In this document: one piece after another, positions 6,023 to 28,455 of the stretch
How the letters are laid out: each line of letters starts with the position of its first letter
Position numbering within the stretch: position 1 is the first letter of the stretch
Assembly (NCBI RefSeq): GCF_045865695.1
Contig: NZ_BAACAP010000234.1
Span: forward strand, 1-64,000
Direction: 5' to 3'
Source: Scytonema sp. NUACC26
GTDB taxonomy: Bacteria; Cyanobacteriota; Cyanobacteriia; Cyanobacteriales; Nostocaceae
DNA length: 64,000 nucleotides
Program-made: the position numbers and the translations under genes
Notes under the pieces: model-generated
The model's input: only the letters and a program-made list of their open reading frames with translations
Database searches by the model: none
Told to the model about the DNA's origin: nothing

Positions 6023-7903
6023 TCACCCTTTTACACAAACAACTTGCTTAAGAGTTGCTACAACTTCAACTAAATCGGCTTGATTGTTCATCACCTCATC
6101 TATAGGTTTGTAAGCACCTGGAATTTCATCCAAAACACCTTCATCTTTACGACACTCTACACCTTTTGTTTGCTCAATTAAATCGTCAAGAGTATAAACA
6201 TTCTTTGCCTTATTTCGAGATAGCAAACGACCTGCACCATGAGAGCAAGAACAAAAACTATTGGCACAACCTTTGCCTTTAACAATGTAAGATTTTGCCC
6301 CCATTGAACCAGGGATAATGCCATAGTCGTCTTTTTCTGCACGCACTGCACCCTTACGAGTGACGTATACATCCTCGCCAAAATGCAGTTCTTTTTCAGC
6401 GTAATTGTGATGGCAATTGACCTCTAGTAAAGGTTTAATTGATTTACCACCTGCTAAATGTTTCTCAACGATGTGCTTGAAACGTGCCATCATTACCTCA
6501 CGGTTGACACGCGCATAGTCCTGCGCCCATTGCAAATCGTGCCAGTATGCTTGGAATTCTGGCGTACCAGCAATAAAATAGGCTAAATCTGGGTCTGGCA
6601 ATTTATTGTCTGCCATTTTTGCTAAATTTTTAGCAGTGTTGATATGGCATTGAGCAAGATTATTGCCAATATGACGCGAACCGGAATGCAACATCAGCCA
6701 AACTTGGTTCTCTGTATCGAGGCAAACTTCTAGAAAATGATTTCCAGATCCGAGAGAACCCATTTGTTTCATCGCTTTACTTTGTAAATCTTGCACCCCT
6801 GGATGCAAGTCCTTAAAGTCGCGCCAGCTTTGCCAGTTGGTAATAGTTTTTTCAACCTCTTTATTTTCGTTAAATCCAGTAGGAATTGCTGCTTCAATAT
6901 CCAAGCGGATTTTTTTCAGTTTTCCTTCTAGTTTGTCACCATTAAATGGTGTTTTTATCGCCATCATACCACAGTTGTGAACGAAGACACCCGCTTTCAA
7001 AGCAAAGTTGTGATATTCAGGTACTGTAAAGCAATAAACATCTTGTGTACAGTCTAAAGATAGAACAGCTACAACTTTGTGATTACACTGATGTTCTTTT
7101 TTTCGGTGATTGTGTAAACCAATTGGAGTTTTGATTTGTGCATTACAAATGTCACAGGTATAGTGCAAATCACCAGAACGATCGCGATCGCCCATGAATT
7201 TTAAATTCTCAGGTCGGTTATCTGATTCATTAAAGTTTTGATGATGAATAACTGTTCTTTGTCCTTCAAATCTAGGAACCTTTCCTAGCAAGCCCGATCT
7301 AGCAATAATCCAATGTGCTTTGTGCCATCTACCTGAGTAGGGCTGAGCGATTAAGGTATAACCATCTTTGTCAGTGGTTGAGTAGAACGGCATCAAAGAT
7401 GTTCCAGATTGAAGATGTTGTGCTTCCTCATAGTTTCCATCTCTAAGCATAAATTGGTGATCTGGAGTGCAGATAATTTCTTCACCATTGTCCAGAATGA
7501 CTTTTACAAGAGGAGCATTACGTCTAGTTAACCTTGCTTTTGCCTTAGCTGCTACGACTTTTCCAGTGGAGGTACAAGAGTAAACTATAAATTCTTCATT
7601 ACATTCAGCTAAATCTTTTATAGAATACAATTTACCATCGACTAAAGGAATAAGAGTATCACCTACAAAGCAGCCAATATCCACGCCGACAGCAGCTGGG
7701 ATAATTGCTTCTTTTGTGGCAATGACTGAACCAACTAAGGCTCCTTTACCTAAGTGAACGTCTGGCATTAATGCTACGTGTTTAAATACAAATGGCAGTG
7801 ATGCTACATTCTTTGCCATCTTGGTTTCTTCTGTTCCCAATGGGTGGTTTGCCCAAGACAGGACAGGTGATGGTGTGGAAAGTTCTAATTCTTCGTAGGG
7901 CAT
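6023..7903 (-). CDS. rtcB: RNA-splicing ligase RtcB interrupted by a 233-aa intein.
   Basis: RtcB motifs PDVHLGKGALVGSV, GSGNHFLE and SCSHGAGR. The conserved GVDIGCGMM site is split as GVDIGC|FVGDTLIPLVDG...FVHN|CGMMAIKT. Confidence 0.95.
   Translation of the reverse strand: MPYEELELSTPSPVLSWANHPLGTEETKMAKNVASLPFVFKHVALMPDVHLGKGALVGSVIATKEAIIPAAVGVDIGCFVGDTLIPLVDGKLYSIKDLAECNEEFIVYSCTSTGKVVAAKAKARLTRRNAPLVKVILDNGEEIICTPDHQFMLRDGNYEEAQHLQSGTSLMPFYSTTDKDGYTLIAQPYSGRWHKAHWIIARSGLLGKVPRFEGQRTVIHHQNFNESDNRPENLKFMGDRDRSGDLHYTCDICNAQIKTPIGLHNHRKKEHQCNHKVVAVLSLDCTQDVYCFTVPEYHNFALKAGVFVHNCGMMAIKTPFNGDKLEGKLKKIRLDIEAAIPTGFNENKEVEKTITNWQSWRDFKDLHPGVQDLQSKAMKQMGSLGSGNHFLEVCLDTENQVWLMLHSGSRHIGNNLAQCHINTAKNLAKMADNKLPDPDLAYFIAGTPEFQAYWHDLQWAQDYARVNREVMMARFKHIVEKHLAGGKSIKPLLEVNCHHNYAEKELHFGEDVYVTRKGAVRAEKDDYGIIPGSMGAKSYIVKGKGCANSFCSCSHGAGRLLSRNKAKNVYTLDDLIEQTKGVECRKDEGVLDEIPGAYKPIDEVMNNQADLVEVVATLKQVVCVKG
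6974..7672 (-). mobile_element. Intein with HNH homing-endonuclease domain inserted at the RtcB GCG active-site motif.
   Basis: Cys1 (CFVGDTLIP, block A), C-terminal VHN followed by +1 Cys, and HNH signature VIHHQNFNESDNRPENL plus C/H-rich HYTCDICN...HNHRKKEHQCNH. Coordinates derived by codon counting (aa 78-310). Confidence 0.8.
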
Positions 7904-8263: not shown

Positions 8264-9196
8264 GTGAAGAAAAATAAACAAACTTCTATGGCAGTTCGTC
8301 AAGATACTATCTGGGAACGCTTTTTATCCCCTGTGGTGCGTCTCCTCATTGATGAACAGGGATGGCGGCGATATGCAGAAAGTGTTGATTGGGAAAAAGA
8401 AAGCGATCGCTATCGACGTGCTGATGTAACGATTCCCACATACTACAGCAGTCAAAACTTTCACGGAATTAAGCGCGGGTATCTTAACTCTGGTGCAGCA
8501 GTAACCTATGACCCCATTACCCAATATGTTTTACCTCCTAACGAAACCATTGTCCGTCAAGCGTTAATTGATGCGATTCAGGTACAACCGCGAAGGATTT
8601 TAGATTTGGGTTGTGGAACGGGTTCGACTACTTTAATGTTAAAACAGGCATTCCCCCAAGCCGAAGTCATAGGTTTGGATTTATCGCCTTATATGCTTGT
8701 GAGGGCTTCGCACAAATCACAAAATGCTGGTTTGGATATTTCCTGGAGACATGGTGATGCTGAGAGAACTGGTTTTCCAGATGCTTCCTTTGATTTGGTA
8801 ACTGCCTCTTTATTATTCCACGAAACACCAACTGTCGTCTGTCAAGCAATTTTACACGAAGCCTTCCGGTTACTAGTATCTGGCGGACAAGTGTTGATTT
8901 TGGATGGCAATCAAAAAACTATTCGGCAATTGGATTGGCTGAACAATGTTTTTGAGGAGCCGTATATTGAGGAATATGCATCTGGAAGCGTTGATGCTTG
9001 GATGGGTGCTGCTGGATTTGGCTCCGTACAAACTCAGGATGTTTGGTGGATTAACCAAGTCACAAGCGGAATTAAGCCGATTGTGTCTGGCGCTCGCAGT
9101 GTTCAAAGAAATGCCATGCATTACACTCCAGGGGACACCACAGTAGATAATGGATTGCAGGGATTTCCATTACCAGCTTGTAGTATACTTCCATGA
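8264..9196 (+). CDS. Class I SAM-dependent methyltransferase.
   Basis: Motif I ILDLGCGTGSTT, motif post-I VIGLDLS, Rossmann-type layout. Confidence 0.8.
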   Translation: MKKNKQTSMAVRQDTIWERFLSPVVRLLIDEQGWRRYAESVDWEKESDRYRRADVTIPTYYSSQNFHGIKRGYLNSGAAVTYDPITQYVLPPNETIVRQALIDAIQVQPRRILDLGCGTGSTTLMLKQAFPQAEVIGLDLSPYMLVRASHKSQNAGLDISWRHGDAERTGFPDASFDLVTASLLFHETPTVVCQAILHEAFRLLVSGGQVLILDGNQKTIRQLDWLNNVFEEPYIEEYASGSVDAWMGAAGFGSVQTQDVWWINQVTSGIKPIVSGARSVQRNAMHYTPGDTTVDNGLQGFPLPACSILP

Positions 9197-14169: not shown

Positions 14170-14772
14170 ATGCCTTACAGTCAATTTGATTCTATAGGAA
14201 AAGTTAAATCTGCTTTTGGAATCTCCACAGTTGAGGGAGTGCGTTTTTTTCCTCAAATATCACCATGTGAACCTTCAACTTTAACTGAATTTTTAGAAGA
14301 AAGTTTACCCTTAGCGATCGCAACTGGAAGTGAAAAAGCTCATTCAGAATTAATTATAAGTCCCGTGCTTTTAGAAGTGCGTAAGATTCTTAAGCGTCAA
14401 ATTAGTTTATTCTCTGGTGATAATTTTGATGTAGACGCTTCAGTTAGTCTAAATGGTAGATGTGACTTTCTCATTAGTCGTTCGCCGGAATTGTTAGAGA
14501 TTGAAGCTCCTAGAGTTATTATTGTTGAAGCAAAACAAGCCGATTTAAAGTTGGGAATAGGTCAGTGTGTTGCAGAAATGATAGCCGCTCAAAGGTTTAA
14601 TGAGTTAAAAGAAAATCCTACTAATACTATTTATGGCAGTATTACAAGCGGTACTCAGTGGCGATTTCTTAAGTTAGAAGGGAAAATTGTTACAATCGAT
14701 CTTACCGATTATTCTTTACCACCGATAGACCAACTTCTTGGGATTTTAGTTTGGATGGTACAAAACGCTTGA
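14170..14772 (+). CDS. Hypothetical protein with a predicted PD-(D/E)xK nuclease-fold core.
   Basis: E (SELIISPVLLE), D (GRCDFLIS) and ExK (VIIVEAKQ) in canonical order and spacing. No other recognisable domain. Confidence 0.5.
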   Translation: MPYSQFDSIGKVKSAFGISTVEGVRFFPQISPCEPSTLTEFLEESLPLAIATGSEKAHSELIISPVLLEVRKILKRQISLFSGDNFDVDASVSLNGRCDFLISRSPELLEIEAPRVIIVEAKQADLKLGIGQCVAEMIAAQRFNELKENPTNTIYGSITSGTQWRFLKLEGKIVTIDLTDYSLPPIDQLLGILVWMVQNA

Positions 14773-14948
14773 CTAAAAGAAATTTAAGCAATTTTTCAGT
14801 AATTACCCACTACCATTTAATATTTTATGTGCTACATTAAGTAGTATAGTAATACATCAGCAAAACTGTGGTTCGGGTTCTACATACCCGACTGGTGCGC
14901 CAACCTATGGATTGAGCGTATACCGTTCTTGCAATGCATTGCTAAACC

Positions 14949-15020
14949 GTTTGATTAGCTCAGTTGGTTAGAGCAACCGAAGCCATCGGTCGGACGTAGG
15001 TTAAAATCCTACATCAAACT
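14949..15020 (+). tRNA. Degenerate tRNA-like element, likely a pseudo-tRNA. Perfect 7-bp acceptor stem and D-arm, but aberrant anticodon and variable regions and a T-loop lacking TTC.
   Basis: Acceptor gtttgat/atcaaac. D-arm gctc-agttggtta-gagc. T-stem gtagg/cctac with loop ttaaaat. Anticodon-region loop contains CAT. Confidence 0.3.
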
Positions 15021-15028
15021 CCCCTCTT

Positions 15029-15104
15029 TGAAAGTGAGCTCATTGGATAGAGCGATCGACTCATAATCGATTGGTTGCAGGTTCGATTCCTGCACTTTCC
15101 ACCA
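15029..15104 (+). tRNA. tRNA-Met(CAT)-like gene with genomically encoded CCA. Deviates from consensus (U1-C72 mismatch, G8), so it may be a variant or pseudo-tRNA.
   Basis: Manual fold: acceptor tgaaagt/actttcc (6 of 7 bp), D-arm gctc-attggata-gagc, anticodon stem atcga/tcgat with loop ctCATaa, variable tggtt, T-arm gcagg-ttcgatt-cctgc, discriminator a, then cca. Confidence 0.45.
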
Positions 15105-15548
15105 AAGAAAGTCCGGGTCAAAAGACACTACCCTGTCACGGTAGCTTTACATGGTATGGGAGAAATCCCAAGACGGTTCGACTCCGTTGTTATGCAAACT
15201 CTGCAATGTGGGTGCTCGCGGTTGGACGTTACTCAGTGATGTTCAATCGCCACAGTGAAGAAGCCTGTGCAATTGTCTTCTCCTTAATTTGAGTTTGTTC
15301 GAGCGTTTGTCATATCCATTTTCTCTACGAGAATTCTGGAATTGGCAAATGCAACGGCAAATCTGAGTGCTATTTTTCCTTGTAAGAGGAATTATAGCAA
15401 TATGGCGATAAGCTGGGTACAGCTTGCGCTAAGAGCGATCGCTACAACTGGTAATAACCAGAGTAGTGTTTTGCCCTCTTAATCCAATTTTAGAGACGCA
15501 ATTTGCCCGCAACTGAACTGCAAACACCCACACTTGTAGAGTTTCAAT

Positions 15549-15589
15549 TAATCACTGGTCACTGGTTACTGGTCACTGGTCACTGTATT
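15549..15589. repeat. STRR heptamer array (CACTGGT) forming the 5' region or leader of the SPFH gene.
   Basis: atcactggtcactggttactggtcactggtcactg. Confidence 0.8.
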
Positions 15590-17113
15590 ATGTGGAAAAC
15601 ATTTTATATCAAACCTAACGAAATCGGAATTTTATATCACAGAAGTGATTTCAAGAAAATTTTACAGCCCGGTACTTACACTTATATCGGACGCCATTGG
15701 CAAGTCAAAACCTATGACCTCAACCAACCAGAAGCCAAGATTGAGAACCTCGAACTTTTGTTGAGAGATCGTGGCTCCGAGTTACAACAACATCTCATAG
15801 TCGTGCGAACAGCTTACAACCAAGCAGCTTTAGTACGCTTGGGTCAAAATTGGATGAGCATTGCACCCAATCAACTACGGGCTTTTTGGCGCGGTTTTAT
15901 TGAGGTAGAATCCCATGTCTTCAACTTGGAAGAAAGCTTGGAATTACCAACAGAATTCGTACAGCAAGTACGCGGAATTGCTTTGAACGGACTGAAAAAG
16001 TTTCAAATTTCAGAGTCTGAAATTGGTTTGCTGTACGTACAAAATAACTTTGTCCGACCCCTAGAACCAGGAGAGTACGCTTTTTGGTCGCAAGACAAAG
16101 ATGTTTCACTCCGAACGCTCAGCCGGATTGTACCTAATCCTAGCTTTCCCCTCGAAGATGTATTGATTGAAAAACATCCTGACTTTGTTGCAGCGTATTG
16201 TGAAGTCGTACAATCGCTGACTTATCAAGTCGCAATTGTGAGATATCAAGGGAAAGTTATTTCCATCCTACCGCCATGCGATCGCAAATTGTTTTGGAAA
16301 GGTGTTGAGGTGGAGACGATCGACATCAGCACTGATGCTAAGTTACCTTCTCGTTTGGTGGCTGAGTTAGTTTCCGGTAAACCTGAAACTCTAGCTTTGA
16401 GCCGCAATTCTTTGCATATTCGCGAAGTACCAACACAACACCTGGGGTTACTCTACATCAATCAAGAGTATCAATCACAACTCCAAGCAGGAATGCATGC
16501 ATGGTGGCTGTTTGGGCGTTCTTTGCAAACAGAAATCTTTGACCTTCGTTACTCAACACTTGAAGTATCCGGTCAAGACATTCTTTCTAAAGATAAAGTC
16601 CCTTTGCGTTTAAACTTAACTGCTGGCTACCGCATTCTCGACCCACTTAGAGCCAAGAATGGTTTATCAGATATTACCACTTACCTATACAAAGAACTAC
16701 AGTTTGCTTTGCGTGGTGCTGTTGGGGAAAGAACTCTAGATGCATTGTTGGAGGATAAAGGCGCAATTGATAGCAGTGTCTCCGAATACATTCGCTCCAA
16801 AACTGCTGACTATGGAATTGAAGTCGATTCAGTTGGGGTAAAAGATATTATTCTTCCTGGTGAGATTAAGACGATTCTGAGCAAGGTTGTGGAAGCAGAA
16901 AAAGCAGCCCAAGCAAACGGAGTCCGTCGTCGTGAAGAAACTGCTGCAACTCGCAGTATGTTGAATACTGCTAAGGTCATGGAAGATAATCCCGTTGCGT
17001 TGCGTCTCAAGGAGTTAGAAGTGCTCGAAAGAATTGCCGAAAAGATTGAGAAAATTCAAGTCAATGGCAGTTTGGATAGTATCTTGACGGAGTTGATTCG
17101 GATTAATCGCTAG
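15590..17113 (+). CDS. SPFH/band-7 domain protein with a large N-terminal domain of unknown function. The ORF is open from 15503, but the ATG at 15590 after the STRR is the more plausible start.
   Basis: C-terminal SPFH signature LRLNLTAGYRILDPLRA...GIEVDSVGVKDIILPGEIKTILSKVVEAEKAAQANGVRRREE...LRLKELEVLERIAEK. Confidence 0.75.
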   Translation: MWKTFYIKPNEIGILYHRSDFKKILQPGTYTYIGRHWQVKTYDLNQPEAKIENLELLLRDRGSELQQHLIVVRTAYNQAALVRLGQNWMSIAPNQLRAFWRGFIEVESHVFNLEESLELPTEFVQQVRGIALNGLKKFQISESEIGLLYVQNNFVRPLEPGEYAFWSQDKDVSLRTLSRIVPNPSFPLEDVLIEKHPDFVAAYCEVVQSLTYQVAIVRYQGKVISILPPCDRKLFWKGVEVETIDISTDAKLPSRLVAELVSGKPETLALSRNSLHIREVPTQHLGLLYINQEYQSQLQAGMHAWWLFGRSLQTEIFDLRYSTLEVSGQDILSKDKVPLRLNLTAGYRILDPLRAKNGLSDITTYLYKELQFALRGAVGERTLDALLEDKGAIDSSVSEYIRSKTADYGIEVDSVGVKDIILPGEIKTILSKVVEAEKAAQANGVRRREETAATRSMLNTAKVMEDNPVALRLKELEVLERIAEKIEKIQVNGSLDSILTELIRINR

Positions 17114-17292
17114 TAAACTGATAAAGCTAACTAGTCAGGATAGTCATTTGTCATTGGTCAATCGCTCGCTTACATCTGATACAGTTCTTGTGGGGTGGGC
17201 ATCTTGCCCGCCTAGAATAGTTATTGTAAATTGATTTTCAAAATTAGTGTAATATACGTCAAACAATTAAGAACGCTAGAATTATCAATGTA

Positions 17293-17592
17293 ATGCACGT
17301 TATCAGCCGTAAAAAGTTGCGAGAATTTTGTCAACGACATGGAGATTGCTATGAAGTACTAGACGACTGGTATAAAATTGCAACTAAAGCTCACTGGAAA
17401 AACTTAGTGGAGGTTCAAGCCGCTTATCCTCGAGCGGAAGCAGTTAATAATTTTACAGTTTTTAATATTAAAGGTAATAAATATAGATTGATTGTTAGTA
17501 TTAATTATGAAAAACAAGTTATCTATATTAAATATGTCTTAACTCATGCAGAATATGACAAAGATAACTGGAAAAATGACCATTACTATTAA
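17293..17592 (+). CDS. higB: Type II toxin HigB (RelE-superfamily mRNA interferase, COG4680/PF09907).
   Basis: MHVISRKKLREF...WYKIATKAHWKNLVEVQAAYPRAEAV.NFTVFNIKGNKYRLIVSINYEKQVIYIKYVLTHAEYDK, near-consensus for the family. Confidence 0.8.
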   Translation: MHVISRKKLREFCQRHGDCYEVLDDWYKIATKAHWKNLVEVQAAYPRAEAVNNFTVFNIKGNKYRLIVSINYEKQVIYIKYVLTHAEYDKDNWKNDHYY

Positions 17593-18037: not shown

Positions 18038-18150
18038 GAAAATTATTCCGACTTTGTTACGGCTTATTGTAAAGTCGTACAATCGCTAACTTACCAAGTC
18101 GCAATTGATAAGATATCAAGGAAAAGTTATTTCCATCCTCCCACCATGCG
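18038..18150 (+). pseudogene. About 110-bp fragment of an SPFH-gene paralog, roughly 85-90% identical to 16175-16290 of the intact gene, with a frameshift.
   Basis: gactttgtt.c.g..tattgt.aagtcgtacaatcgct.actta.caagtcgcaattg...agatatcaagg.aaagttatttccatcct.cc.ccatgcgatcgc is shared with the intact gene. An indel breaks the frame. Confidence 0.7.
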
Positions 18151-18348
18151 ATCGCTGTCTAAGGAACGTAGTAAATTAGCAATTCCGATTGTTGCTCGTC
18201 TTAGTTCTACCCGCTCTTCTTGAGCCTGATTTTCCACTGTAGTTAATCCCTCTATATTGTGCGTGAGTTCAGCAATCCAATCTGTTAATGCTTGGATAGC
18301 ACGACGACTATTCGCTTCGACAATTTGCTGAAGTTCATAAAATTCCAT
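18127..18348 (-). CDS. Small hypothetical ORF (73 aa). Its 3' end overlaps the SPFH fragment, so it may be spurious.
   Basis: ORF only. No recognisable motif. Confidence 0.25.
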   Translation of the reverse strand: MEFYELQQIVEANSRRAIQALTDWIAELTHNIEGLTTVENQAQEERVELRRATIGIANLLRSLDSDRMVGGWK

Positions 18349-18721: not shown

Positions 18722-19972
18722 ATGTATCAATATAGTATTAGTTTTTTATTTATTATCTTACTTGCGGTAAACTTAATGTTTCCTCAGTTGGCATTAGCAG
18801 AAGATGAACTTCAAACACAATTCTTAGCTCAGATACAAAGCCCAAAACAATCAATGTCTCCCAAAGCAGCTTTAGAAAGATTATTTGTTAGCAAACAAAT
18901 ACAACCTGATTGGTTTGCATCAGAATTTTTAGCTCAAGTATCCATAGTGCAAATACGACAAGTCATTGCTGAATTAAAGAAGCAGTTGGGAAATTATCAA
19001 GGTATACAAAATAATGAGCGAGATTACTTGGTACTTTTTAGTCAAGCTTCAGTACCTACTAAAGTAGTTTTAAATCCCAAAGGTCAGATTTCAGGTTTGC
19101 TGTTTCAACCTCCGCAAGCTAAAGTTGTTAGTTTAGAAGAAGCGATCGCTCAATTTAAAGTATTACCCGGTCAAGTTAGTTTTCTAGTTCAAGAAAACAA
19201 CACGACAAAAGCTGAATTAAACACTAGAACACCTCTAGCTGTTGGTTCAGCTTTTAAGCTAGCCGTACTCCAAGCACTGAAATCAGAAATGGCTTCAAGC
19301 AAAAAGACATGGAAAGATGTCGTGCAACTGATACCGGGTGAGAAAAGTTTACCATCTGGAATGTTACAAACATGGCCAGATGGGTCATACTTGACAGTGC
19401 AGACACTTGCAGCTTTGATGATTTCTCTCAGCGATAATACGGCAACAGATATATTAATTAACTTGCTCGGACGAGAGGAAATTGAGTCTGTGTCACCCCG
19501 TAACCGTCCTTTCCTGACAACCCGCGAAATGTTTGTTTTAAAAGGTTCTGGAAATCTGGACTTATTGAAACGTTATCAAACAAGCAACGAATCTCAACGC
19601 CGTGCAATATTGAGAGAGATTGCCAAAAAACCGCTTCCTGATGTGAACGAATTTATAGGGACTAACCCAGTTGCTTTGGATGTAGAATGGTTTTTTACGG
19701 CAGAAGAACTCTGCGAACTCATGAAACAAGTTGCCGATTTGCCACTGATGAGTATTAATCCTGGTGTTGCTAATGCCGAAAATTGGCAACAGGTAGCGTA
19801 TAAAGGGGGATCTGAGCCTGGTGTTCTGAATTTGACAACTTGGTTACAGGCAAAGAATGGTAAAAATTACTGTATGGTTGCTACTTGGAACAACAGCAAT
19901 GCAGCTGTAGAAGAGTCGAAGTTTACGGCATTGTATGGTGGGGTAATTGCTAAACTAGCAGCTAATAATTAA
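18722..19972 (+). CDS. Secreted serine hydrolase of the class A beta-lactamase fold.
   Basis: Signal peptide. S-x-x-K (GSAFKLAV), SDN (ISLSDNTATD) and a KGG variant (AYKGGSEPG) of the KTG motif. Confidence 0.7.
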   Translation: MYQYSISFLFIILLAVNLMFPQLALAEDELQTQFLAQIQSPKQSMSPKAALERLFVSKQIQPDWFASEFLAQVSIVQIRQVIAELKKQLGNYQGIQNNERDYLVLFSQASVPTKVVLNPKGQISGLLFQPPQAKVVSLEEAIAQFKVLPGQVSFLVQENNTTKAELNTRTPLAVGSAFKLAVLQALKSEMASSKKTWKDVVQLIPGEKSLPSGMLQTWPDGSYLTVQTLAALMISLSDNTATDILINLLGREEIESVSPRNRPFLTTREMFVLKGSGNLDLLKRYQTSNESQRRAILREIAKKPLPDVNEFIGTNPVALDVEWFFTAEELCELMKQVADLPLMSINPGVANAENWQQVAYKGGSEPGVLNLTTWLQAKNGKNYCMVATWNNSNAAVEESKFTALYGGVIAKLAANN

Positions 19973-19975
19973 TGT

Positions 19976-19996
19976 CATGCACGTTATCAGGCGTAA
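19976..19996 (+). pseudogene. Orphan 5' fragment of a second higB copy (first 20 nt, 19 of 20 identical to the higB start at 17293).
   Basis: atgcacgttatcaggcgtaa compared with atgcacgttatcagccgtaa. The downstream sequence is unrelated. Confidence 0.5.
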
Positions 19997-20253
19997 TTTG
20001 AGCTACTTATGAGTCGAATACGCATTGTTTGGGCAGAACAGAAGGTAGGAGTTGCAAGGAATGCGAGCGAACAACTTTTGAATTAGCATTGAGTGTAATA
20101 TGGTATTGCGAGCGCTTCCTTAGTAGCTTGGAATTAAACTCCAGAGCTACAGAGGATACAAAAGAAAGCGTTTCTGTATTTTCCGTACTTTCCAGAAGAA
20201 GACAGAGGTTACAATCAAGGTCGTGAAGCCAATGCCTGTAGGACTCGGGGACT

Positions 20254-21618
20254 ATGAGAATTAAGCAAATTTCCGTCAGAGGCTTATTCGGAATTTTCGA
20301 TCATGTGATTCCATTGAACATGGATGAACGCATCACTATCATTCATGGTCCAAATGGGTTTGGTAAAACTGCAATATTAAGAATTTTAAATAGTTTTTTT
20401 AACTCTCGATATGCAGAATTAAGAACTATCGCGTTTAGAAGTTTTCGAGTAGAGTTTAATAATAGTAATGTTATTGAAATTATAAAAAATTCTGATAATG
20501 AGAAAGGCGAACCCAGAAATAATCTTGTTTTTTATTTCTATCATCCTAATTCAGATATACTTTCTTTTTCTCCAAGACCAATTAAGATTCGTACTGACTT
20601 AGACATTCCTATTAGTAGTATTTTAGATGAATTGATACCAGGATTAGAACGTATAAGTCCAAGAAAATGGTTATATATTCCTACTGAAGAAACACTTTCT
20701 TTAGAAGAAGTTATAGAGCGTTTTGAAAATTTATTGCCCTCTGATTTTAAATTGCAAGAATCACGAGAAGAGCCTGAGTGGCTAGAAAAATTAAAGAGCA
20801 ATATTCATGTGCGATTAATTGAATCGCAACGCTTGCTTAACTTTGTTCCTAACCGTTCTTCCAGAAGAAATCTGACAACACCTTCAATGTTGTCAACTGT
20901 ATCTGCCTATTCTGATGAACTTGCCAAGCTGATGCAAGATAAATTTAAGGAGTACGGTACAATATCTCAATCTCTCGATCGAACTTTTCCCGTAAGAGTG
21001 GTGAAGCAACAACCAGTTTCAGATTTAACAGATGAACAGCTTCGTCATCAACTAAACAACCTTGAAGAGACTCGCTCTCATCTTATAGAAGTAGGTTTGT
21101 TAGATAAAGATGAAGATTCAGAATTTCAAATTCAGCCTCAAGATATCGATGAAAGCACTAAAAATGCTTTGTCAGTATACGTTGAAGATGTTGAAAAAAA
21201 GCTGAGTGTTTTTGTTGAAATAGCTGACAAGATTGAGTTGTTAAGGACAATTATCAATAACAAATTTGCTTATTCCTACAAAAAGATAAGCTTTAGTAAG
21301 GATAAGGGATTCGTTTTTACAACACATAACTCTCCACTATCTAATTTAAAAACTCTTTCATCAACAGATTTATCATCTGGCGAACAACATGAGTTAGTGC
21401 TTCTCTACGAACTGCTATTTAAAGTCCAACCTAACTCTCTAGTCTTAATTGATGAACCCGAACTATCTCTTCATGTAGGATGGCAAATACAGTTTTTAAA
21501 AGATTTACAAGAAATTATAAAGCTCACAGATGTAGATGTTCTAATGGCTACTCATTCACCAGATATCATTCAAGATCGCTGGGATTTAACAGTTGAACTC
21601 AAAGGGTTAGAAAAGTGA
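20254..21618 (+). CDS. ABC-type / RecF-SMC-like AAA ATPase (AAA_15/AAA_21 family), resembling the AriA ATPase of the PARIS defense system.
   Basis: Walker A GPNGFGKT, signature LSSGEQ, Walker B LVLIDEPELSLH, H-loop MATHSP. A long insertion lies between Walker A and the signature motif. Confidence 0.85.
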   Translation: MRIKQISVRGLFGIFDHVIPLNMDERITIIHGPNGFGKTAILRILNSFFNSRYAELRTIAFRSFRVEFNNSNVIEIIKNSDNEKGEPRNNLVFYFYHPNSDILSFSPRPIKIRTDLDIPISSILDELIPGLERISPRKWLYIPTEETLSLEEVIERFENLLPSDFKLQESREEPEWLEKLKSNIHVRLIESQRLLNFVPNRSSRRNLTTPSMLSTVSAYSDELAKLMQDKFKEYGTISQSLDRTFPVRVVKQQPVSDLTDEQLRHQLNNLEETRSHLIEVGLLDKDEDSEFQIQPQDIDESTKNALSVYVEDVEKKLSVFVEIADKIELLRTIINNKFAYSYKKISFSKDKGFVFTTHNSPLSNLKTLSSTDLSSGEQHELVLLYELLFKVQPNSLVLIDEPELSLHVGWQIQFLKDLQEIIKLTDVDVLMATHSPDIIQDRWDLTVELKGLEK

Positions 21619-22481
21619 GAGAGTTTCTGACGATTGACCGGGAAGCCAACCAAATTCGATTGCGGCGGAGTACTTTTTCAGGAACTTTTTTATTAGTGGA
21701 AGGTAGTTCCGACAAAACTTTCTACGAGCGTTTTATTGACAAAGCAGCTTGTCAATTAGCCAGCGTTTCGGGAAAACCTTCAAGTAAGCTGCGTGCGATC
21801 GCTGTTTTAGAAATTTTAGAAAAATCAACTTTCCAAGGAATTCTAGCTATTATTGATGCAGACTTTGAGCGCCTTGAAACTTTAACATACACCAGTCCTA
21901 ATCTGTTTCGCACCGACACTCACGATCTTGAAACTATGCTAATCAACTCACCAGCACTTAACAAAGTAGTTGCTGAATTTGGCTCTGAAGAGAAAATAGC
22001 TCAGTTTAATCGAGAGATAAGATTAGCATTGCTTGAAACTGGAATGTCAGTAGGTTATCTGCGTTGGCTTTCTCAGTGTGATGGGTTGAACCTAACCTTT
22101 GAGGGTATTACATTCAGCAAATTCATTGATGAGCAAACTCTACAGATTGATGAGCTTAAACTGATTCGAGAAGTGAAAAATAAATCTCAAGCCTTTTCCT
22201 TGAAAGATGAAGATCTGCAACAACGGCTCATGAGCCAAAAAAACAAAAGTCACGATTCTTGGCAAATCTGCTGCGGTCACGATCTAGTGCAACTTCTGTC
22301 ACTCGGCTTACGCAGAGCGATTGGCTCTAACAAAGTTGCTGATGTTGAACCTAACAGTCTTGAGCGTAATTTGCGGCTTGCCTATGAAGAAGTTTACTTC
22401 TGTAAGACACAGCTTTACCTAGATGTTCGCATATGGGAAAACAATAATCAACCGTTTAGGGTTCTCCGCAACGAAGTTTAA
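21615..22481 (+). CDS. DUF4435 / Toprim-like (OLD-family-type) nuclease-domain protein, an AriB-like partner of the upstream ATPase. GTG start overlapping the upstream stop (GTGA).
   Basis: Toprim-like conserved acidic residues: LLVEGSSDKTFYERF (Glu) and ILAIIDADFERLE (DxD). Size and gene coupling match the two-gene ATPase plus DUF4435 arrangement. Confidence 0.65.
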   Translation: MREFLTIDREANQIRLRRSTFSGTFLLVEGSSDKTFYERFIDKAACQLASVSGKPSSKLRAIAVLEILEKSTFQGILAIIDADFERLETLTYTSPNLFRTDTHDLETMLINSPALNKVVAEFGSEEKIAQFNREIRLALLETGMSVGYLRWLSQCDGLNLTFEGITFSKFIDEQTLQIDELKLIREVKNKSQAFSLKDEDLQQRLMSQKNKSHDSWQICCGHDLVQLLSLGLRRAIGSNKVADVEPNSLERNLRLAYEEVYFCKTQLYLDVRIWENNNQPFRVLRNEV

Positions 22482-22591
22482 CGATGCATATATTCCGTTT
22501 GTTAATATTTACCTTTTTTTGGAAGCACCTTAATTTTTTACTAGTAGCTGGGAACTATATCACTGTAGTCTTTTACAGTGGTGAGTCAGCT

Positions 22592-23848
22592 ATGACGTTT
22601 AAAATTCTTAGCTTAGATGGTGGTGGAATCCGTGGTGTAGTTTCGCTACAAATGCTACAAGAGGTGGAACGTGAAATCTGGGAAACTTATAAATTAGAGT
22701 TGCATCAATACTTTGACATGATTGCTGGTACTTCCACTGGTTCAATTATCGCTGCTGGGTTGGCAAAGGGCTTAAATACAAAACAACTTCTTGAGCTATA
22801 CAGAAACAATGCCAAGGACATCTTTCCTTACCCGAAGACAGTATTTGGAAAAGCTTGGCAAAAGGTCAGAAGTATATTTTTTCCCAAATATGCTCATGAT
22901 GGATTAGAGCAAGCACTTTCACAAAAAGGTGCTTTGGGCGATACAAAAATTTGTGACATTTCCCAAACTCTATTGTTAATTCTTGCTTATGATATGCGTT
23001 ATCGCAACACAACTTTTTTTACCAATTTCCATCCCGATTTGGGACTACGCTGGTACGATGAACTTCCACTAACAGATATATGTATTAGTTCCGCATCAGC
23101 ACCTACTTTCTTCCCACCACGTGAATTGAAAGCATTTGATGAAAAGAAGTTTGGTAAATGGTCATTTCCCCATATTGATGGTGGGGTTTGTGCTAATAAT
23201 CCATCTTTAGCCGCAATTAGCCAAGCTTTAAAGATAAGCCGCAATCCTAAAATCTCTGTAGAAGAGAAGCAAAAATATAACTTAGAGAATCTCAAACTAG
23301 AAAATATTTCTGTACTTTCTATTGGTACGGGTAGAAGCGCAAATCCTTATGAATACGAACAAATCAAAAGATGGACTTCATTGAGTTGGGTAGCACGACT
23401 TGTGGATGTGTTCATGGAGCCGACAGGTGAAATAAATGCTACCATCTGTCAAAATATTATCGGAGGTTTTGAGTCGGGACGTTACCTTCGACTAGACTTT
23501 GATTTGAATGAAAGATATAAAGTTCTAGTTAACGAGGATGATAAAACCGCTCGTTCTCTGATTGGAAAAAAGGAGAAACGAAAAAATAAGTATTTAGTGG
23601 AAACTAAGTATTCATTTGAAACTGTTAATGAAGAGATGGATAATTCCACATCAACAAATATTGAGACTTTAATTGCAGCGGCTCAAGCCTTTATTAACTC
23701 TGGTCTGATTTATGATTCTAGAGTATACGGCAAAGGACCTAAAGTCAAAAATGCAATTACGGAGTTTATTGCTAACAATCCTGTTGCTCGCAATACTACA
23801 GACCAGTTTCAGGAACTATCAAGCATTGAGCCATTAATTCACACATAA
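22592..23848 (+). CDS. Patatin-like phospholipase with an approximately 200-aa uncharacterised C-terminal domain. The ORF is open from 22484, but the ATG at 22592 has an SD-like GGTGAG.
   Basis: Oxyanion GGGIRG (LDGGGIRGVV), nucleophile elbow GTSTGS, catalytic DGG (IDGGVCANNP). Confidence 0.9.
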   Translation: MTFKILSLDGGGIRGVVSLQMLQEVEREIWETYKLELHQYFDMIAGTSTGSIIAAGLAKGLNTKQLLELYRNNAKDIFPYPKTVFGKAWQKVRSIFFPKYAHDGLEQALSQKGALGDTKICDISQTLLLILAYDMRYRNTTFFTNFHPDLGLRWYDELPLTDICISSASAPTFFPPRELKAFDEKKFGKWSFPHIDGGVCANNPSLAAISQALKISRNPKISVEEKQKYNLENLKLENISVLSIGTGRSANPYEYEQIKRWTSLSWVARLVDVFMEPTGEINATICQNIIGGFESGRYLRLDFDLNERYKVLVNEDDKTARSLIGKKEKRKNKYLVETKYSFETVNEEMDNSTSTNIETLIAAAQAFINSGLIYDSRVYGKGPKVKNAITEFIANNPVARNTTDQFQELSSIEPLIHT

Positions 23849-24084
23849 GGGAACATCCTTTTTAGCAAATTGCGATTTGGAAAAATCCGGACACAATAAC
23901 TATTTGTGTCCTAAGAATAGTCCTAAAAATAATCGCTATTCAAGTCATGGAAAACGATTAAAGTGAGCGGTGTTGTGCGTAAATGTGAGTAAGACGCGAC
24001 CGCTCGCACTTCGATTGGAAACGGACTCATAGGCAACATTTTAATTGATGAATATAATGCGATTGCTGCTCTTATACAGTTTTA

Positions 24085-27000
24085 TCAATAACTGTCAAAA
24101 GGTGAAATTGAACCAGCAGAGCAAGAAGCAGGGTTAAATAACGGAGTATGAGGGAGCGCAGAAGGTACAATAGCTACTAAAACTACATTCCCTTTAGTAT
24201 CAACTACCCATCCTTGGGCTTCTACAATTGGAGACGAATTGACAAAATCTACTTTTTGTGTATTTCTCTGTGTTGCGACAGTCGTGTTTCGGATATCTGT
24301 AACATTATTCTCTCCCTCCGCCTTCAACGTTACCCAATTTGCCATCACTGCATCACCCATCAACGGTTCTGTAGGGCTAGATGATATTCCTCCACGTCCT
24401 GTCACAATCATAGAACTTTTTCTTTGATTTCCATCTCCACAGCTAGTAGCAACTTGCTGAGAAGCATCAACTAAATTTATGGGAAGTTCCACCAATCCGC
24501 CACTAGGGTCAACATCAGGTCTATTAATATTTACCTGACCGCTTAAATTAGGGCTTGTCTGAGAAATTGCCGTAATATCATTTGTTTGTAAGAGTTGAGG
24601 ATCGAGTTTGGTTGGCTCATTCGTTCCCAATATACTCACTAAGTCGGCGCGATCGCGAAGAATCATACCAAAAATAGCAGTAGCGTTGATATTAATTTTT
24701 CCACCCAAACCATTGAATGCATTGGCAACTACATCGCTATTTTCCTTTGGAACAGCAACTATGAAACCGTTGTTAGCATTGATAGTTATATTTCCACCAT
24801 TACCATTTTTACCAGCAATAGCCGATATCTGACCGTTGCGACGCATGAGTAATAATTTTTGCACGTCGATGGTAATATTTCCACCTTGACTAGATGCTGT
24901 ATTGGCAAATATGCCAGTAGGAGAATTTGCAGCAACCGAAGTCTGATTCAAGCTAGGTGTACTACCTGAAATAATCAGGCGATCGGCTTTGTTGATGTTA
25001 ATATTACCTGCATCACCATTTCCAGAAGCATTGGTAATTAATTGTCCGCCACTAGTGAGTTCTACAGTCTTTGCCTCAACAGTGATATTACCACCTCTGA
25101 ATGCATTTCCACTTTCTGCCCTTATATTTGCTGCATCTGATACTAGTAAAGTCCCAGTAGGAACCATAATGCTAATATCACCTGCTTCATCTCTAGCATA
25201 AGTTGTGCTGTTAGTTTGTAAAATAGATACGGGAGAAAATGTACGACGATTTGGGGCATTTGGAAAAAGTTGGCGACCTGAGATTTCTACTTTATCTGTA
25301 GCATTAATCTCAATCTTACCGGGTTTGCCACCATCAAAAGATTGACTTGTCACTTCTGCACCAGCAGTTATAGAAACAGACCTTCCACTGATTTTAATAT
25401 CACCAGCATTGCCCACATTAGGATTATTTTTTTTAGCTTCTGCCAAACCTACTTCAGTCGTAATCCGGCTATTTTGTACAGATACCAAACCCTGAGAGCC
25501 AATTGTAATATTGGCAGAATTCCCACTAACAAAGCTTTTGGTATTGATGTTGCTATTATTTGCTATGGACACCGATTCTTTACCAAACAGTGATATGTCT
25601 CGCGTACCCGTGACTTCACTAAACGTGGCACTAACAATATAAGCATTATCCAACGAGATCGAACCATTGGCTTTGAGTGATATACCTCCTCCACCTTTTC
25701 CCCCTCGGCGATTATAGGTGGATATGACTTTATTTTCTATATCTGTACCCAGCCCTATTAAAGATATAGAACCACTGGCTTCCACGGAAATATTTCCACT
25801 ACGTCCAAAACCAAAATTACCGATACTGTCGTTTCTATAGTTACTTGCATCCAATGCAGGCTTATCCTCTAGTCTAGGATTCCCACCTGGCTGGATATAA
25901 GCCGGGTTAGTAATGAAAATATCACCTGCTTTTATATTGATATCACCTGCATCACCTCTACCCAAGGTACGGCTCCGAAGGAATCCATCATTAAGTTCAA
26001 CTTTATCTACTGCATTAACTTGAATATTGCCAGATTTCCCACCACCTCTTGAGGATACGGTAGATACTTCCGATCCACCAGTTAGAGAAACAGACCGTCC
26101 ATTGATTTCAATATTACCAGCGTTAGTAACTACAGATGTATTTGTTGGTGGATCTGTATGAGTAAAAATCCTGCTATTTTGTACGATTACAGAACCCTCA
26201 GATTTTACTTTAATATCTCCTGCATTTCCACTCAAAAAGCTAGAGGCATTAATCCTGCTCGCATCCGCCAAAGATAGTCCCTCTTTGCCAAATAGCGATA
26301 TGTCACCTCCTCCCGCAACCTCGCTAAAGGTAGCACTGACAACATAAGCATTTGATAAACTCAGAGAACCGTTGGCTTTGAGCGATATATCTCCTCCGCC
26401 TTTTCCTCCACGGCGATTGTAGGTGGATATGACTTTATTTTGTTGATTGTTCTGTAGATCTTTACCTAGTCCTATTAAAGATATGGAACCATTGGTTTCT
26501 AAGGAGATATTACCACTGCGCCCGGTTCCATAACCATTGAGTCCAGAGTCATTACTGTAATTACCTGCATCTATTGCTGGTTTGTCATCTAGTGTCGATC
26601 TGTTACCAGGATCGGGATAAGCAGGGTTTGCGATCGCAATATCGCCATTCGCTTTAACATTAATGTTACCTGCATCACCACTCCCCAAAGTGCGAGTCTT
26701 CAACCTTCCACCCTTCAATTCCACTGAATTCGCATTAACGTTAATGTCACCAGTATTACCATTCGATCTAGTCCCAGCCACATTTTCAACCAGGCTGTCC
26801 CCATCCATTTTTAATGCTCCAGTAGCGTTAAGCGAAATATTTCCAGTCTCATTTGCCACTTTTGTCAAACCGGGCTTAATTCCAGCAGAAATCTGGCTTC
26901 CTCCAGAAATATCTAAATTACGAGTGGTAATTGCTATACTCCCAACACCTTTATCCATCACATTAACAGAAGCTCGATTGGTGAGAGATACATCTGCTCT

Positions 27001-27777
27001 TTCTACTTCTGAGGGAACGCTTAAGAATAAGTTGCTACCATCAAGATTCAGCCCTACCGTTCCCGATCCATTAACTCCAGCCAACTCAATCCGACCATCT
27101 GCAGCCTGCAACAAACCGCCATCTACACTGACCTTACCACCCACCAGTGCCAAAGTTTTACCCGGTTGCACCTGTAGACCAACAGCTCGAGCGCTTCCAT
27201 CCTTTGACTGGGATTGATTGACAATGCTTCCCGCATTACCTCCAAATTGCAGACCAATAGGAACACTAATTGTTAACAAAGAAGTTGTTTGAGGTGCAGC
27301 CGCGCTAAACTTTGTACCATCTGCAAAATTCAGACTTGTCGCCGTACTTGCAAAGAACGAGCCGCCGATATTCAGCGCTGCGTTTTTGCCAAAAATAATT
27401 CCATTTGGGTTGAGCAAAAATAAGTTAGCTGAACCATTAGTACGAATTAATCCATCAATGTTAGAGATTGACTGACCTGTAACTCGACTGATAATATTTT
27501 GAACATTTACAGAGTTATTAAAGAAAGCAGTGCTACCCGTAGGAACAGAAAACTCTTGAAAACTATGAAACAGGTTACCATTAGCTGGCGTGCCTCCTTC
27601 AATAATTCTGGTGGCACCATCTAATCTAACGGTAGAATTATTGGGCAGAGTAGTATCTGGAGAGATTTGGGCAATGGCATAATTGGTAGAGAAAAAAAAT
27701 GTACTGCTTATCGGTATACCTAGTAACAAAACCCAACGGTTACTCATCAGAGACATTGCGCTCTCCCAGTGCTGCAT
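24085..27777 (-). CDS. Filamentous hemagglutinin-type (TpsA/FhaB-like) giant exoprotein with an N-terminal TPS secretion domain and beta-helical repeats. Contains a tandem duplication of roughly 265 aa.
   Basis: Signal peptide. TPS domain with NPNGIIFG, beta-helix G-rich repeats. Two near-identical segments (..NPAYPDPGNRSTLDDKPAIDAGNY.. and ..NPAYIQPGGNPRLEDKPALDASNY..). No TpsB transporter gene in the window. Confidence 0.85.
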   Translation of the reverse strand: MQHWESAMSLMSNRWVLLLGIPISSTFFFSTNYAIAQISPDTTLPNNSTVRLDGATRIIEGGTPANGNLFHSFQEFSVPTGSTAFFNNSVNVQNIISRVTGQSISNIDGLIRTNGSANLFLLNPNGIIFGKNAALNIGGSFFASTATSLNFADGTKFSAAAPQTTSLLTISVPIGLQFGGNAGSIVNQSQSKDGSARAVGLQVQPGKTLALVGGKVSVDGGLLQAADGRIELAGVNGSGTVGLNLDGSNLFLSVPSEVERADVSLTNRASVNVMDKGVGSIAITTRNLDISGGSQISAGIKPGLTKVANETGNISLNATGALKMDGDSLVENVAGTRSNGNTGDINVNANSVELKGGRLKTRTLGSGDAGNINVKANGDIAIANPAYPDPGNRSTLDDKPAIDAGNYSNDSGLNGYGTGRSGNISLETNGSISLIGLGKDLQNNQQNKVISTYNRRGGKGGGDISLKANGSLSLSNAYVVSATFSEVAGGGDISLFGKEGLSLADASRINASSFLSGNAGDIKVKSEGSVIVQNSRIFTHTDPPTNTSVVTNAGNIEINGRSVSLTGGSEVSTVSSRGGGKSGNIQVNAVDKVELNDGFLRSRTLGRGDAGDINIKAGDIFITNPAYIQPGGNPRLEDKPALDASNYRNDSIGNFGFGRSGNISVEASGSISLIGLGTDIENKVISTYNRRGGKGGGGISLKANGSISLDNAYIVSATFSEVTGTRDISLFGKESVSIANNSNINTKSFVSGNSANITIGSQGLVSVQNSRITTEVGLAEAKKNNPNVGNAGDIKISGRSVSITAGAEVTSQSFDGGKPGKIEINATDKVEISGRQLFPNAPNRRTFSPVSILQTNSTTYARDEAGDISIMVPTGTLLVSDAANIRAESGNAFRGGNITVEAKTVELTSGGQLITNASGNGDAGNININKADRLIISGSTPSLNQTSVAANSPTGIFANTASSQGGNITIDVQKLLLMRRNGQISAIAGKNGNGGNITINANNGFIVAVPKENSDVVANAFNGLGGKININATAIFGMILRDRADLVSILGTNEPTKLDPQLLQTNDITAISQTSPNLSGQVNINRPDVDPSGGLVELPINLVDASQQVATSCGDGNQRKSSMIVTGRGGISSSPTEPLMGDAVMANWVTLKAEGENNVTDIRNTTVATQRNTQKVDFVNSSPIVEAQGWVVDTKGNVVLVAIVPSALPHTPLFNPASCSAGSISPFDSY

Positions 27778-27859: not shown

Positions 27860-28096
27860 CTAGTCTGACTTCAGCACTTCTAAATTGCTAATAATTTTAT
27901 CGTTTCGGATATCCTCTAACCACTCGTCATACAATAAGGCACATCGAGCAGGGAAAGTACTGAGAGTTGCAATAGCTTTATTTATTTCACTCACCCAGGC
28001 TTTTGCCTTCTCTGGAGAATCATTCTGCCGAATCCATTTTGCTGCTGTTTTGATATCAGCTTTTGCTACAGGAAGAATAATGACTCGATATTTCAT
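27860..28096 (-). CDS. RelE/ParE-family toxin-like protein, possibly truncated or divergent.
   Basis: N-terminus MKYRVIILPVAKADIKTAAKWI is typical of ParE/RelE toxins. Overlaps the upstream antitoxin gene by 4 nt. Confidence 0.5.
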   Translation of the reverse strand: MKYRVIILPVAKADIKTAAKWIRQNDSPEKAKAWVSEINKAIATLSTFPARCALLYDEWLEDIRNDKIISNLEVLKSD

Positions 28097-28380
28097 TTCT
28101 CATCCAGCGATTGCATAATCTCTCTAAATACCTCGTCAACAGGCTCCCCTTTTCCTTCCTTCATTTCTTGCAGTGCTACTTTGATCGCTTCAATTGTCTC
28201 AAGCCTTTCGACAAGCTCAAGCAACTTTTGATAAGATTCTACATCTTGCACTACAAGCTCGGCTTTTCCGTTAACCGTTAAAACTACTGGCTTACCTGTT
28301 TTCCTCAACTGATCCATGAACTCAGCGGTATTTCGCTTGAAGTTTGAGAGAGAATTAATACCCCTGCTGATGTCTAACAC
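28093..28380 (-). CDS. Phd/YefM-family antitoxin. Likely GTG start at 28380, preceded by a perfect GGAGG SD. The ORF track extends to 28443.
   Basis: NFKRNTAEFMDQLRKTGKPVVLTVNGKAELVVQDVESYQKLLELVERLE, the Phd/YefM fold signature. aggaggtaatGTG lies upstream. Confidence 0.7.
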   Translation of the reverse strand: MLDISRGINSLSNFKRNTAEFMDQLRKTGKPVVLTVNGKAELVVQDVESYQKLLELVERLETIEAIKVALQEMKEGKGEPVDEVFREIMQSLDEK

Positions 28381-28455
28381 ATTACCTCCTAAGCAATCAC
28401 TCTTTTGAGTATACACTAAATTTAGTGCAAATTTAGCGTACACCTATCAATAGAT

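Follow-up and report, generated by a model that had tools for sequence, protein, structure and literature searches.

A PARIS (AriA/AriB) cassette adjoining a probably unrelated patatin-like lipase in the cyanobacterium Scytonema sp. NUACC26

The window described here, meaning the whole stretch of DNA that was analysed, comprises 64,000 nucleotides (nt) of contig NZ_BAACAP010000234.1 of Scytonema sp. NUACC26 (assembly GCF_045865695.1). Within it, three successive open reading frames (ORFs) on the same strand encode an ABC-type ATPase, a DUF4435/Toprim protein and a patatin-like lipid acyl hydrolase. A preliminary description had read the three genes as a candidate defence cluster, in which a PARIS-like AriA/AriB pair was coupled to the patatin as a possible second effector. 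The ORFs do lie where that description placed them (20254–21618, 21615–22481 and, from either of two starts, 22484 or 22592 to 23848), and all of the motifs that it quoted for the three proteins are present in the translations. The locus nevertheless very probably holds two independent units side by side, namely a PARIS cassette and an unrelated, stand-alone patatin lipase. The features of the locus are as follows.

20151–20253, + strand: non-coding leader of the ariAB cassette, likely its promoter (start of blastn homology and 16-locus alignment; promoter function putative)
20254–21618, + strand: ariA, ABC-type (AAA_15/AAA_21) ATPase of 454 amino acids (aa) (Pfam, PADLOC, alignment with solved AriA)
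21615–22481, + strand: ariB, DUF4435/Toprim nuclease of 288 aa with a GTG start (Pfam, PADLOC, invariant residues, AF2 fold match)
22482–22513, no strand: junction of two independently conserved units (blastn extents; end of homology with S. hofmannii PCC 7110)
22514–22591, + strand: upstream region belonging to the patatin gene itself (also conserved in orthologues without ariAB; promoter function putative)
22592–23848, + strand: patatin-like lipid acyl hydrolase, stand-alone, 418 aa, single domain (Pfam, motifs, fold, homologue contexts)

Searches with the Pfam profiles AAA_15, AAA_21, DUF4435 and Patatin all gave matches, and PADLOC placed its AriA and AriB models on top for the first two proteins. 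The ATPase matches AAA_15 (E = 3.2e-18) and AAA_21 (E = 5.1e-14), and its leading PADLOC models are both AriA (PDLC04164, E = 3.2e-24; PDLC02979, E = 2.1e-21), with PtuA and GajA models as secondary matches. Its translation carries the Walker A motif GPNGFGKT, the signature LSSGEQ, the Walker B motif LVLIDEPE and the H-loop ATHSP. The closest solved proteins are AriA (8ux9/8v45, E = 4e-12), and the alignment with 8ux9 keeps the catalytic residues, the Walker A lysine K38 standing opposite AriA K39 and the Walker B glutamate E401 opposite E393. Work with E. coli PARIS has shown that both of these residues are essential (PMC11464382). By analogy with that system, the ATPase would be the sensor and scaffold subunit.

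The second gene begins with a GTG codon that overlaps the ariA stop by 4 nt. This GTGA overlap, which had been put forward as a sign of translational coupling, is real and can be read at 21615 (gaaaaGTGAgagag). The 288-aa product matches DUF4435 (E = 7.5e-13) and the PADLOC AriB model PDLC02983 (E = 1e-23, covering profile positions 3–227 of 236), and it contains the motifs VEGSSD and IIDADFE. In alignments of 17 and 35 sequences, reaching down to 30% identity, residues E29, G30, D33, D81, D83, T100, D101, H103, D104 and E106 are invariant. Within the clade TDTHDLE is also invariant and WQxCCGH is invariant or nearly so, both of them beyond the Toprim core. The pattern of the invariant single residues fits the acidic arrangement E-x3-D ... 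D-x-D/E in the Toprim site of AriB, for which the metal-binding and catalytic residues in E. coli are E26, D30, D88, E90 and E122 (PMC11464382); the spacing of the motifs suggests a putative one-to-one match between these and the acidic residues of the Scytonema protein. The AF2 model of AriB is confident (pLDDT 93.4) and, when compared with the folds in the PDB, matched at E ≤ 0.001 only the AriB chains 8ux9_A and 8v46_D, over the full length (about 326 columns, TM 0.54–0.57, 17% identity), generic Toprim domains being far behind. The DUF4435 protein thus fits the AriB Toprim family by profile, by its invariant acidic residues and by fold matches restricted to AriB, and by analogy it would be the effector subunit of a PARIS system.

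Under the rule published for detecting PARIS, an ATPase that scores ≥32 bits on AAA_15 or ≥27 bits on AAA_21 must adjoin a protein that scores ≥27 bits on DUF4435 (PMC9122126). The corresponding scores here are 66.9, 53.5 and 49.2 bits, and the two genes are adjacent and co-oriented in one cassette. Family models, motifs, the fold match and the conserved pairing described below all uphold the earlier AriA/AriB assignment, and the ATPase–DUF4435 pair is a distant but genuine member of PARIS. PARIS comprises 11 divergent clades, between which the trigger-sensing surfaces of AriA are poorly conserved (PMC11464382), and for this reason sequence similarity to the E. coli AriB is not defining.

Conservation of the pair was followed in a set of 65 AriB loci from species-representative genomes, 52 of which have at least 3 kb of downstream sequence. 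Relatives of this AriB number in the hundreds at 65–82% identity, in Nostoc, Stigonema, Allocoleopsis, Hormoscilla, Planktothrix and other cyanobacteria, and remoter ones are found in Bacillota, Acidobacteriota, Planctomycetes and Methanothrix. In essentially all 65 loci, wherever sequence is available, the gene immediately upstream of ariB encodes an AriA relative; both genes are full-length in 47 of the 65, and 33 of these 47 share the same 4-nt overlap. Clustering of the flanking ORFs across the 65 loci revealed no conserved third gene, only lineage-specific housekeeping synteny in two groups of Nostoc genomes. The ariAB pair is a self-contained two-gene cassette. A DUF433 gene was considered as a third component, as it overlaps the start of AriA in Trichormus variabilis, but it was rejected, being found at only about 5 loci, in differing positions, and being absent from the window. 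A scan of the IMG/VR viral contigs found no AriB relatives, and an exact-sequence look-up of the window's AriB in a contig index returned no record.

The nucleotide homology of the cassette (blastn) starts at about 20151, some 100 nt upstream of ariA (about 18 loci), and the nucleotide sequence of the leader at 20151–20253 has been kept in many cyanobacterial genera, with distinct conserved blocks in an alignment of 16 loci. It holds a -10-like TACAAT/TAGAAT box at about 20212–20217 and a conserved block of the 5′ untranslated region (UTR), ATGAAGCCAATGSCTATAGGACT, that contains the short palindrome GCCAATGGC; no ORF is conserved in the leader. These features suggest that the cassette carries its own promoter. 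The leader could be a promoter with an operator or, alternatively, a structured 5′ UTR.

Work with E. coli PARIS offers a mechanism by which such a pair could act (PMC11464382). Gene content, catalytic residues, fold and gene pairing at the Scytonema locus are those of PARIS, and by analogy the two proteins would also form a complex, answer to a trigger, act on an RNA target and give a defence phenotype. AriA would assemble into a scaffold that holds the AriB nuclease inactive until a phage-encoded trigger protein binds AriA and, in an ATP-dependent step, brings about the release of AriB. The freed AriB would then dimerise and cut host tRNA, so that translation would stop and the infection would be aborted. 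Considering that the trigger-sensing surfaces of AriA vary by clade, the cyanobacterial proteins would be expected to respond to a trigger specific to cyanophages and possibly to cut another tRNA.

Some genomes carry broken copies of the cassette. In Nostoc sp. P9119 (locus L054, 6737–7765), ariB is split by an insertion of about 1.3 kb that encodes a 342-aa transposase-like ORF, and in another locus (L036, about 8354–8487) it is interrupted by an insertion of about 130 bp. In some Nostoc genomes, it seems, the cassette has been inactivated by insertions of this kind. In Scytonema hofmannii PCC 7110 (locus L071, 7859–8816), ariA has been deleted and ariB is truncated at its 5′ end (271 aa), which looks like a decaying PARIS locus.

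The third gene, encoding the patatin, starts with the ATG at 22592; the annotation of Scytonema sp. NUACC26 contains an identical protein of 418 aa, and every homologue opens with MTFKIL. Given this start, the spacer between ariB and the patatin gene is 110 bp, as had been noted before. The Pfam Patatin model (90.9 bits, E = 1.6e-25) ends near the DGG motif at residue 208, and the hallmarks of PF01734 are invariant in the family, namely GGGIRG (oxyanion), S48 of GTSTG (nucleophile) and D196 of DGG. The preliminary description had assigned the remaining C-terminal part, about 200 aa, to an unknown domain; it turns out to belong to the ordinary patatin fold, and it appeared separate because the Pfam model covers only the first half of that fold. 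The PADLOC lipase model PDLC00758 covers residues 2–342, conservation within the family reaches about residue 395 and includes invariant positions all along, and AlphaFold models the protein as one compact domain (pLDDT 88.6, pTM 0.90) in which only residues 403–418 form a low-confidence, disordered tail. The best fold match of the model is plant patatin-17 (408 columns, E = 1e-21, TMt 0.81), followed by CapV and CapE (TMt 0.72–0.76; CapV 0.75).

Several lines of evidence separate the patatin gene from ariAB, and the first is its genomic context elsewhere. A patatin relative within 8 kb is missing from every one of the 65 AriB loci, so that the co-occurrence of the patatin with the ATPase–DUF4435 pair that would speak for a three-gene system is not seen in them. 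Likewise, AriAB was found near none of the seven patatin homologues, close or distant, whose contexts were examined (0/7), and neither AriA nor AriB lies near any of 80 patatin relatives on IMG/VR viral contigs, relatives that are themselves distant (≤37% identity). Each of the homologues at 83, 73, 72, 72 and 67% identity is encoded by a stand-alone gene. A common neighbourhood of patatin, class-V aminotransferase and PLD-family (cardiolipin-synthase-like) genes occurs in three Nostoc loci (L002, L158 and L160), and one orthologue (L001) is convergent with a lipoxygenase gene. Homologues of about 50% identity, a much larger set, sit in a core-genome synteny of S26 signal peptidase, dihydroorotase, patatin, TsaE, CofD and RuvC that is common to Nostoc and Calothrix (L074–L076; Calothrix NIES-2100), and the window patatin may be a second, more mobile paralogue. 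The PLD-family, aminotransferase and lipoxygenase neighbours hint at a role in lipid remodelling or oxylipin metabolism for the close patatin subclade.

A second line of evidence comes from the boundaries of DNA homology. The homology of the cassette ends at 22474–22482, and that of the patatin unit starts at 22514 (blastn), including about 80 nt of the gene's own upstream region. This region is conserved in orthologues that lack ariAB and contains the block CTGGGAACTATAT about 45 nt before the ATG. Together with the different, in some cases recurrent, neighbourhoods elsewhere, this conserved upstream region contradicts the idea of the patatin as part of the cassette.

A third line of evidence is the comparison with S. 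hofmannii PCC 7110, whose locus is syntenic with the window (stretches 14195–17117 and 21706–22482), the Band_7 region being 89% and AriB 91% identical. There the homology ends exactly at 22482, and AriB is followed by a different gene rather than by a patatin. The segment from Band_7 to ariB is wholly different between S. hofmannii PCC 7110 and NUACC26.

On this evidence the patatin is best described as a stand-alone lipid acyl hydrolase with a Ser48–Asp196 dyad, from a family widespread in filamentous cyanobacteria. It is predicted to be a constitutive enzyme that would release fatty acids from membrane lipids, and its fold and the neighbourhoods of its relatives make lipid turnover or remodelling its most likely role.

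Some observations weigh against a PARIS cassette beside an independent lipase. On the side of the cassette, AriB is only about 17% identical to the E. coli AriB, and a search of the PDB sequences with phmmer and the family profile found no AriB, only an RNase M5 Toprim domain at E = 0.5; the link was made by fold because these searches gave no such match. Considering both the low identity and the missing sequence match, the tRNA target and the trigger of the cyanobacterial clade may differ from those of E. coli PARIS. On the side of the patatin, the 110-bp spacer has no recognisable terminator and no consensus σ70 promoter, a promoter and terminator scan of 19900–24150 having found nothing above the shuffled expectation, and the patatin gene could conceivably be co-transcribed with ariAB in NUACC26 by read-through. 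The patatin also scores strongly on models of CBASS lipases (PADLOC PDLC00758, E = 5.2e-67; NCBIfam CBASS_lipase, 182.6 bits).

The low similarity of AriB leaves room for a different reading of the pair, as an OLD-like ABC–Toprim module that works unlike E. coli PARIS, with another nucleic-acid target or a role outside defence. Besides the identity of about 17%, the TM of 0.54–0.57 in the fold match and the absence of a PDB sequence match, this reading could draw on the unusual conservation of the clade over cyanobacterial genera (65–82% amino-acid and about 80% nucleotide identity), on the frequent location of the cassette among housekeeping genes, on the absence of AriB relatives from the IMG/VR viral contigs, and on two motifs beyond the Toprim core, TDTHDLE (invariant in the clade) and WQxCCGH (invariant or nearly so). 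It is nonetheless unlikely. The pair shows every computational trait that defines PARIS, the 11 divergent clades of PARIS already differ in their trigger-sensing surfaces (PMC11464382), and decay by deletion or by insertion of an insertion sequence in some genomes is typical of dispensable defence genes. A divergent PARIS cassette therefore stays the preferred reading of the pair.

The absence of a predicted terminator in the spacer bears on the three-gene arrangement that the preliminary description had proposed. A true three-gene system would require AriA to sense infection and to control both the AriB nuclease and a patatin lipase co-transcribed by read-through, and it could appeal to the common strand, to a spacer of only 110 bp and to the resemblance of the patatin to CBASS lipase effectors. 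The proposal is largely refuted by the neighbourhood data and now has very little probability: there is no co-occurrence in the 65 AriB loci, the seven patatin contexts or the 80 viral patatin loci, a homology breakpoint separates ariB from the patatin, the patatin's upstream region is common to orthologues without ariAB, and in S. hofmannii PCC 7110, the nearest relative, AriB is present but no patatin follows it. Co-transcription by itself would not turn the genes into a system, because co-occurrence is wholly absent elsewhere. It is just as improbable that a chance adjacency has been co-opted in this strain, so that the patatin, read through from the ariAB promoter, serves as a second, membrane-targeting effector beside AriB; if true, this would be a nascent three-gene variant of PARIS. 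The coupled second effector is thus contradicted by neighbourhoods, by homology breakpoints and by an ordinary fold, and the fallback that the same description had offered, a plain PARIS-like pair adjoining an unrelated lipase, is the reading that the evidence favours.

Another way in which the patatin could be tied to defence is as an independent gene, for example an orphan effector resembling CapV or a component of some undescribed system, in a defence and toxin–antitoxin hotspot beside PARIS. Its scores on the CBASS lipase models would be in keeping with this, as would the HigB, Phd and Uma2 genes and gene fragments nearby and the DNA methyltransferase and PIN genes near one homologue (L160). 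However, its 182.6 bits on NCBIfam NF041079 (CBASS_lipase) do not reach the curated equivalog cut-off of 200, and the best fold match is a plant patatin rather than CapV. A Pfam scan of the ORFs of 90 aa or more over about 6 to 35.6 kb of the window showed no CD-NTase cyclase, nor was one found beside the seven patatin homologues examined, and relatives of the patatin occupy housekeeping or lipid-metabolism neighbourhoods that are syntenic across genera. A defence role of this kind is accordingly improbable, if somewhat less so than a three-gene system. A search of the literature for characterised cyanobacterial proteins of the same patatin family yielded no directly relevant work.

The surroundings of the locus are rearranged, as the preliminary description had claimed. 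The HigB toxin gene lies at 17293 (PF09907, E = 1.8e-31). A 26-bp copy of the higB start region (24 of 26 bases) occurs at 19971–19996, just after a beta-lactamase-like gene, and a 106-bp fragment of the Band_7 gene, 90% identical to 16181–16285, occurs at 18050–18155, downstream of higA. The copy and the fragment look like recombination scars in a variable region upstream of ariAB. The adjacency of ariAB and the patatin gene is a strain- or lineage-specific accident in this rearranged region.

Other genes of the window deserve brief mention. An RtcB RNA ligase gene at 6023–7903 (- strand) is split by an intein (Pfam RtcB, E = 4.5e-123; Intein_splicing, E = 8.8e-19). RtcB is able to mend tRNAs that have been cut, and its proximity to a predicted tRNA-cutting system, 12 kb away, is probably coincidental. 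Convergent with the patatin gene is a gene at 24085–27777 (- strand) for an exoprotein of 1230 aa that has a two-partner-secretion (TPS) domain at its N-terminus (E = 6.2e-65) and long, repetitive, beta-helix-like sequence, and after it, at 28093–28443, lies a Phd/YefM antitoxin gene. Finally, the stretch at about 59350–61700 (+ strand) is of unusual composition (G+C fraction up to 0.49, G+C skew of about +0.3) and contains at least nine tandem protein repeats with a period of about 276–285 bp; the ORF list has no + strand entry of 90 aa or more there, and the repeats may belong to a large frame that continues beyond the end of the window.

The locus does not amount to a new three-gene system, and the pair belongs to the known PARIS. 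The cyanobacterial PARIS clade is well conserved and widespread in filamentous cyanobacteria, and Scytonema sp. NUACC26 has an intact copy. The main use of the result is negative, in that the ATPase–Toprim–patatin architecture is a coincidence of gene order, and its importance lies mostly in annotation, with no new principle suggested.

Among known systems, the closest counterpart of the cassette is PARIS of the P4-like satellite of E. coli B185 (8UX9, 8V45–8V49). Both are two-gene cassettes of an AAA_15/21 ABC ATPase and a DUF4435 Toprim protein (454 and 288 aa here, 464 and about 300 aa there), with the Walker A lysine, the Walker B glutamate, E-x3-D and D-x-D kept and with an AriB fold that matches over its full length. 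They differ in that the Scytonema AriB, at about 17% identity, is undetectable by sequence against the solved protein, and in that the E. coli system is carried on a satellite, whereas the cyanobacterial cassette is chromosomal, in filamentous cyanobacteria, and its clade was not found in viral contigs. OLD-family systems, including P2 Old, Gabija GajA and retron-associated PtuA, share the ATPase superfamily of AriA. In contrast to the locus described here, they use Toprim_Old, fuse the domains or have other partners for the ATPase; a separate DUF4435 partner is the defining trait of PARIS (class 4 OLD-like).

For the patatin, plant patatin Pat17 (1OXW, 4PKB) is the best structural match, being single-domain, of similar length and equipped with the same catalytic motifs, although the identity is only 21% and the cyanobacterial protein is cytoplasmic. 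CapV and CapE of CBASS share with it the fold, the Ser–Asp dyad and the strong PADLOC and NCBIfam lipase scores. Unlike them, the window patatin is about 60–80 aa longer, with insertions, has no adjacent cyclase, falls below the NCBIfam equivalog cut-off and has relatives in housekeeping or lipid contexts.

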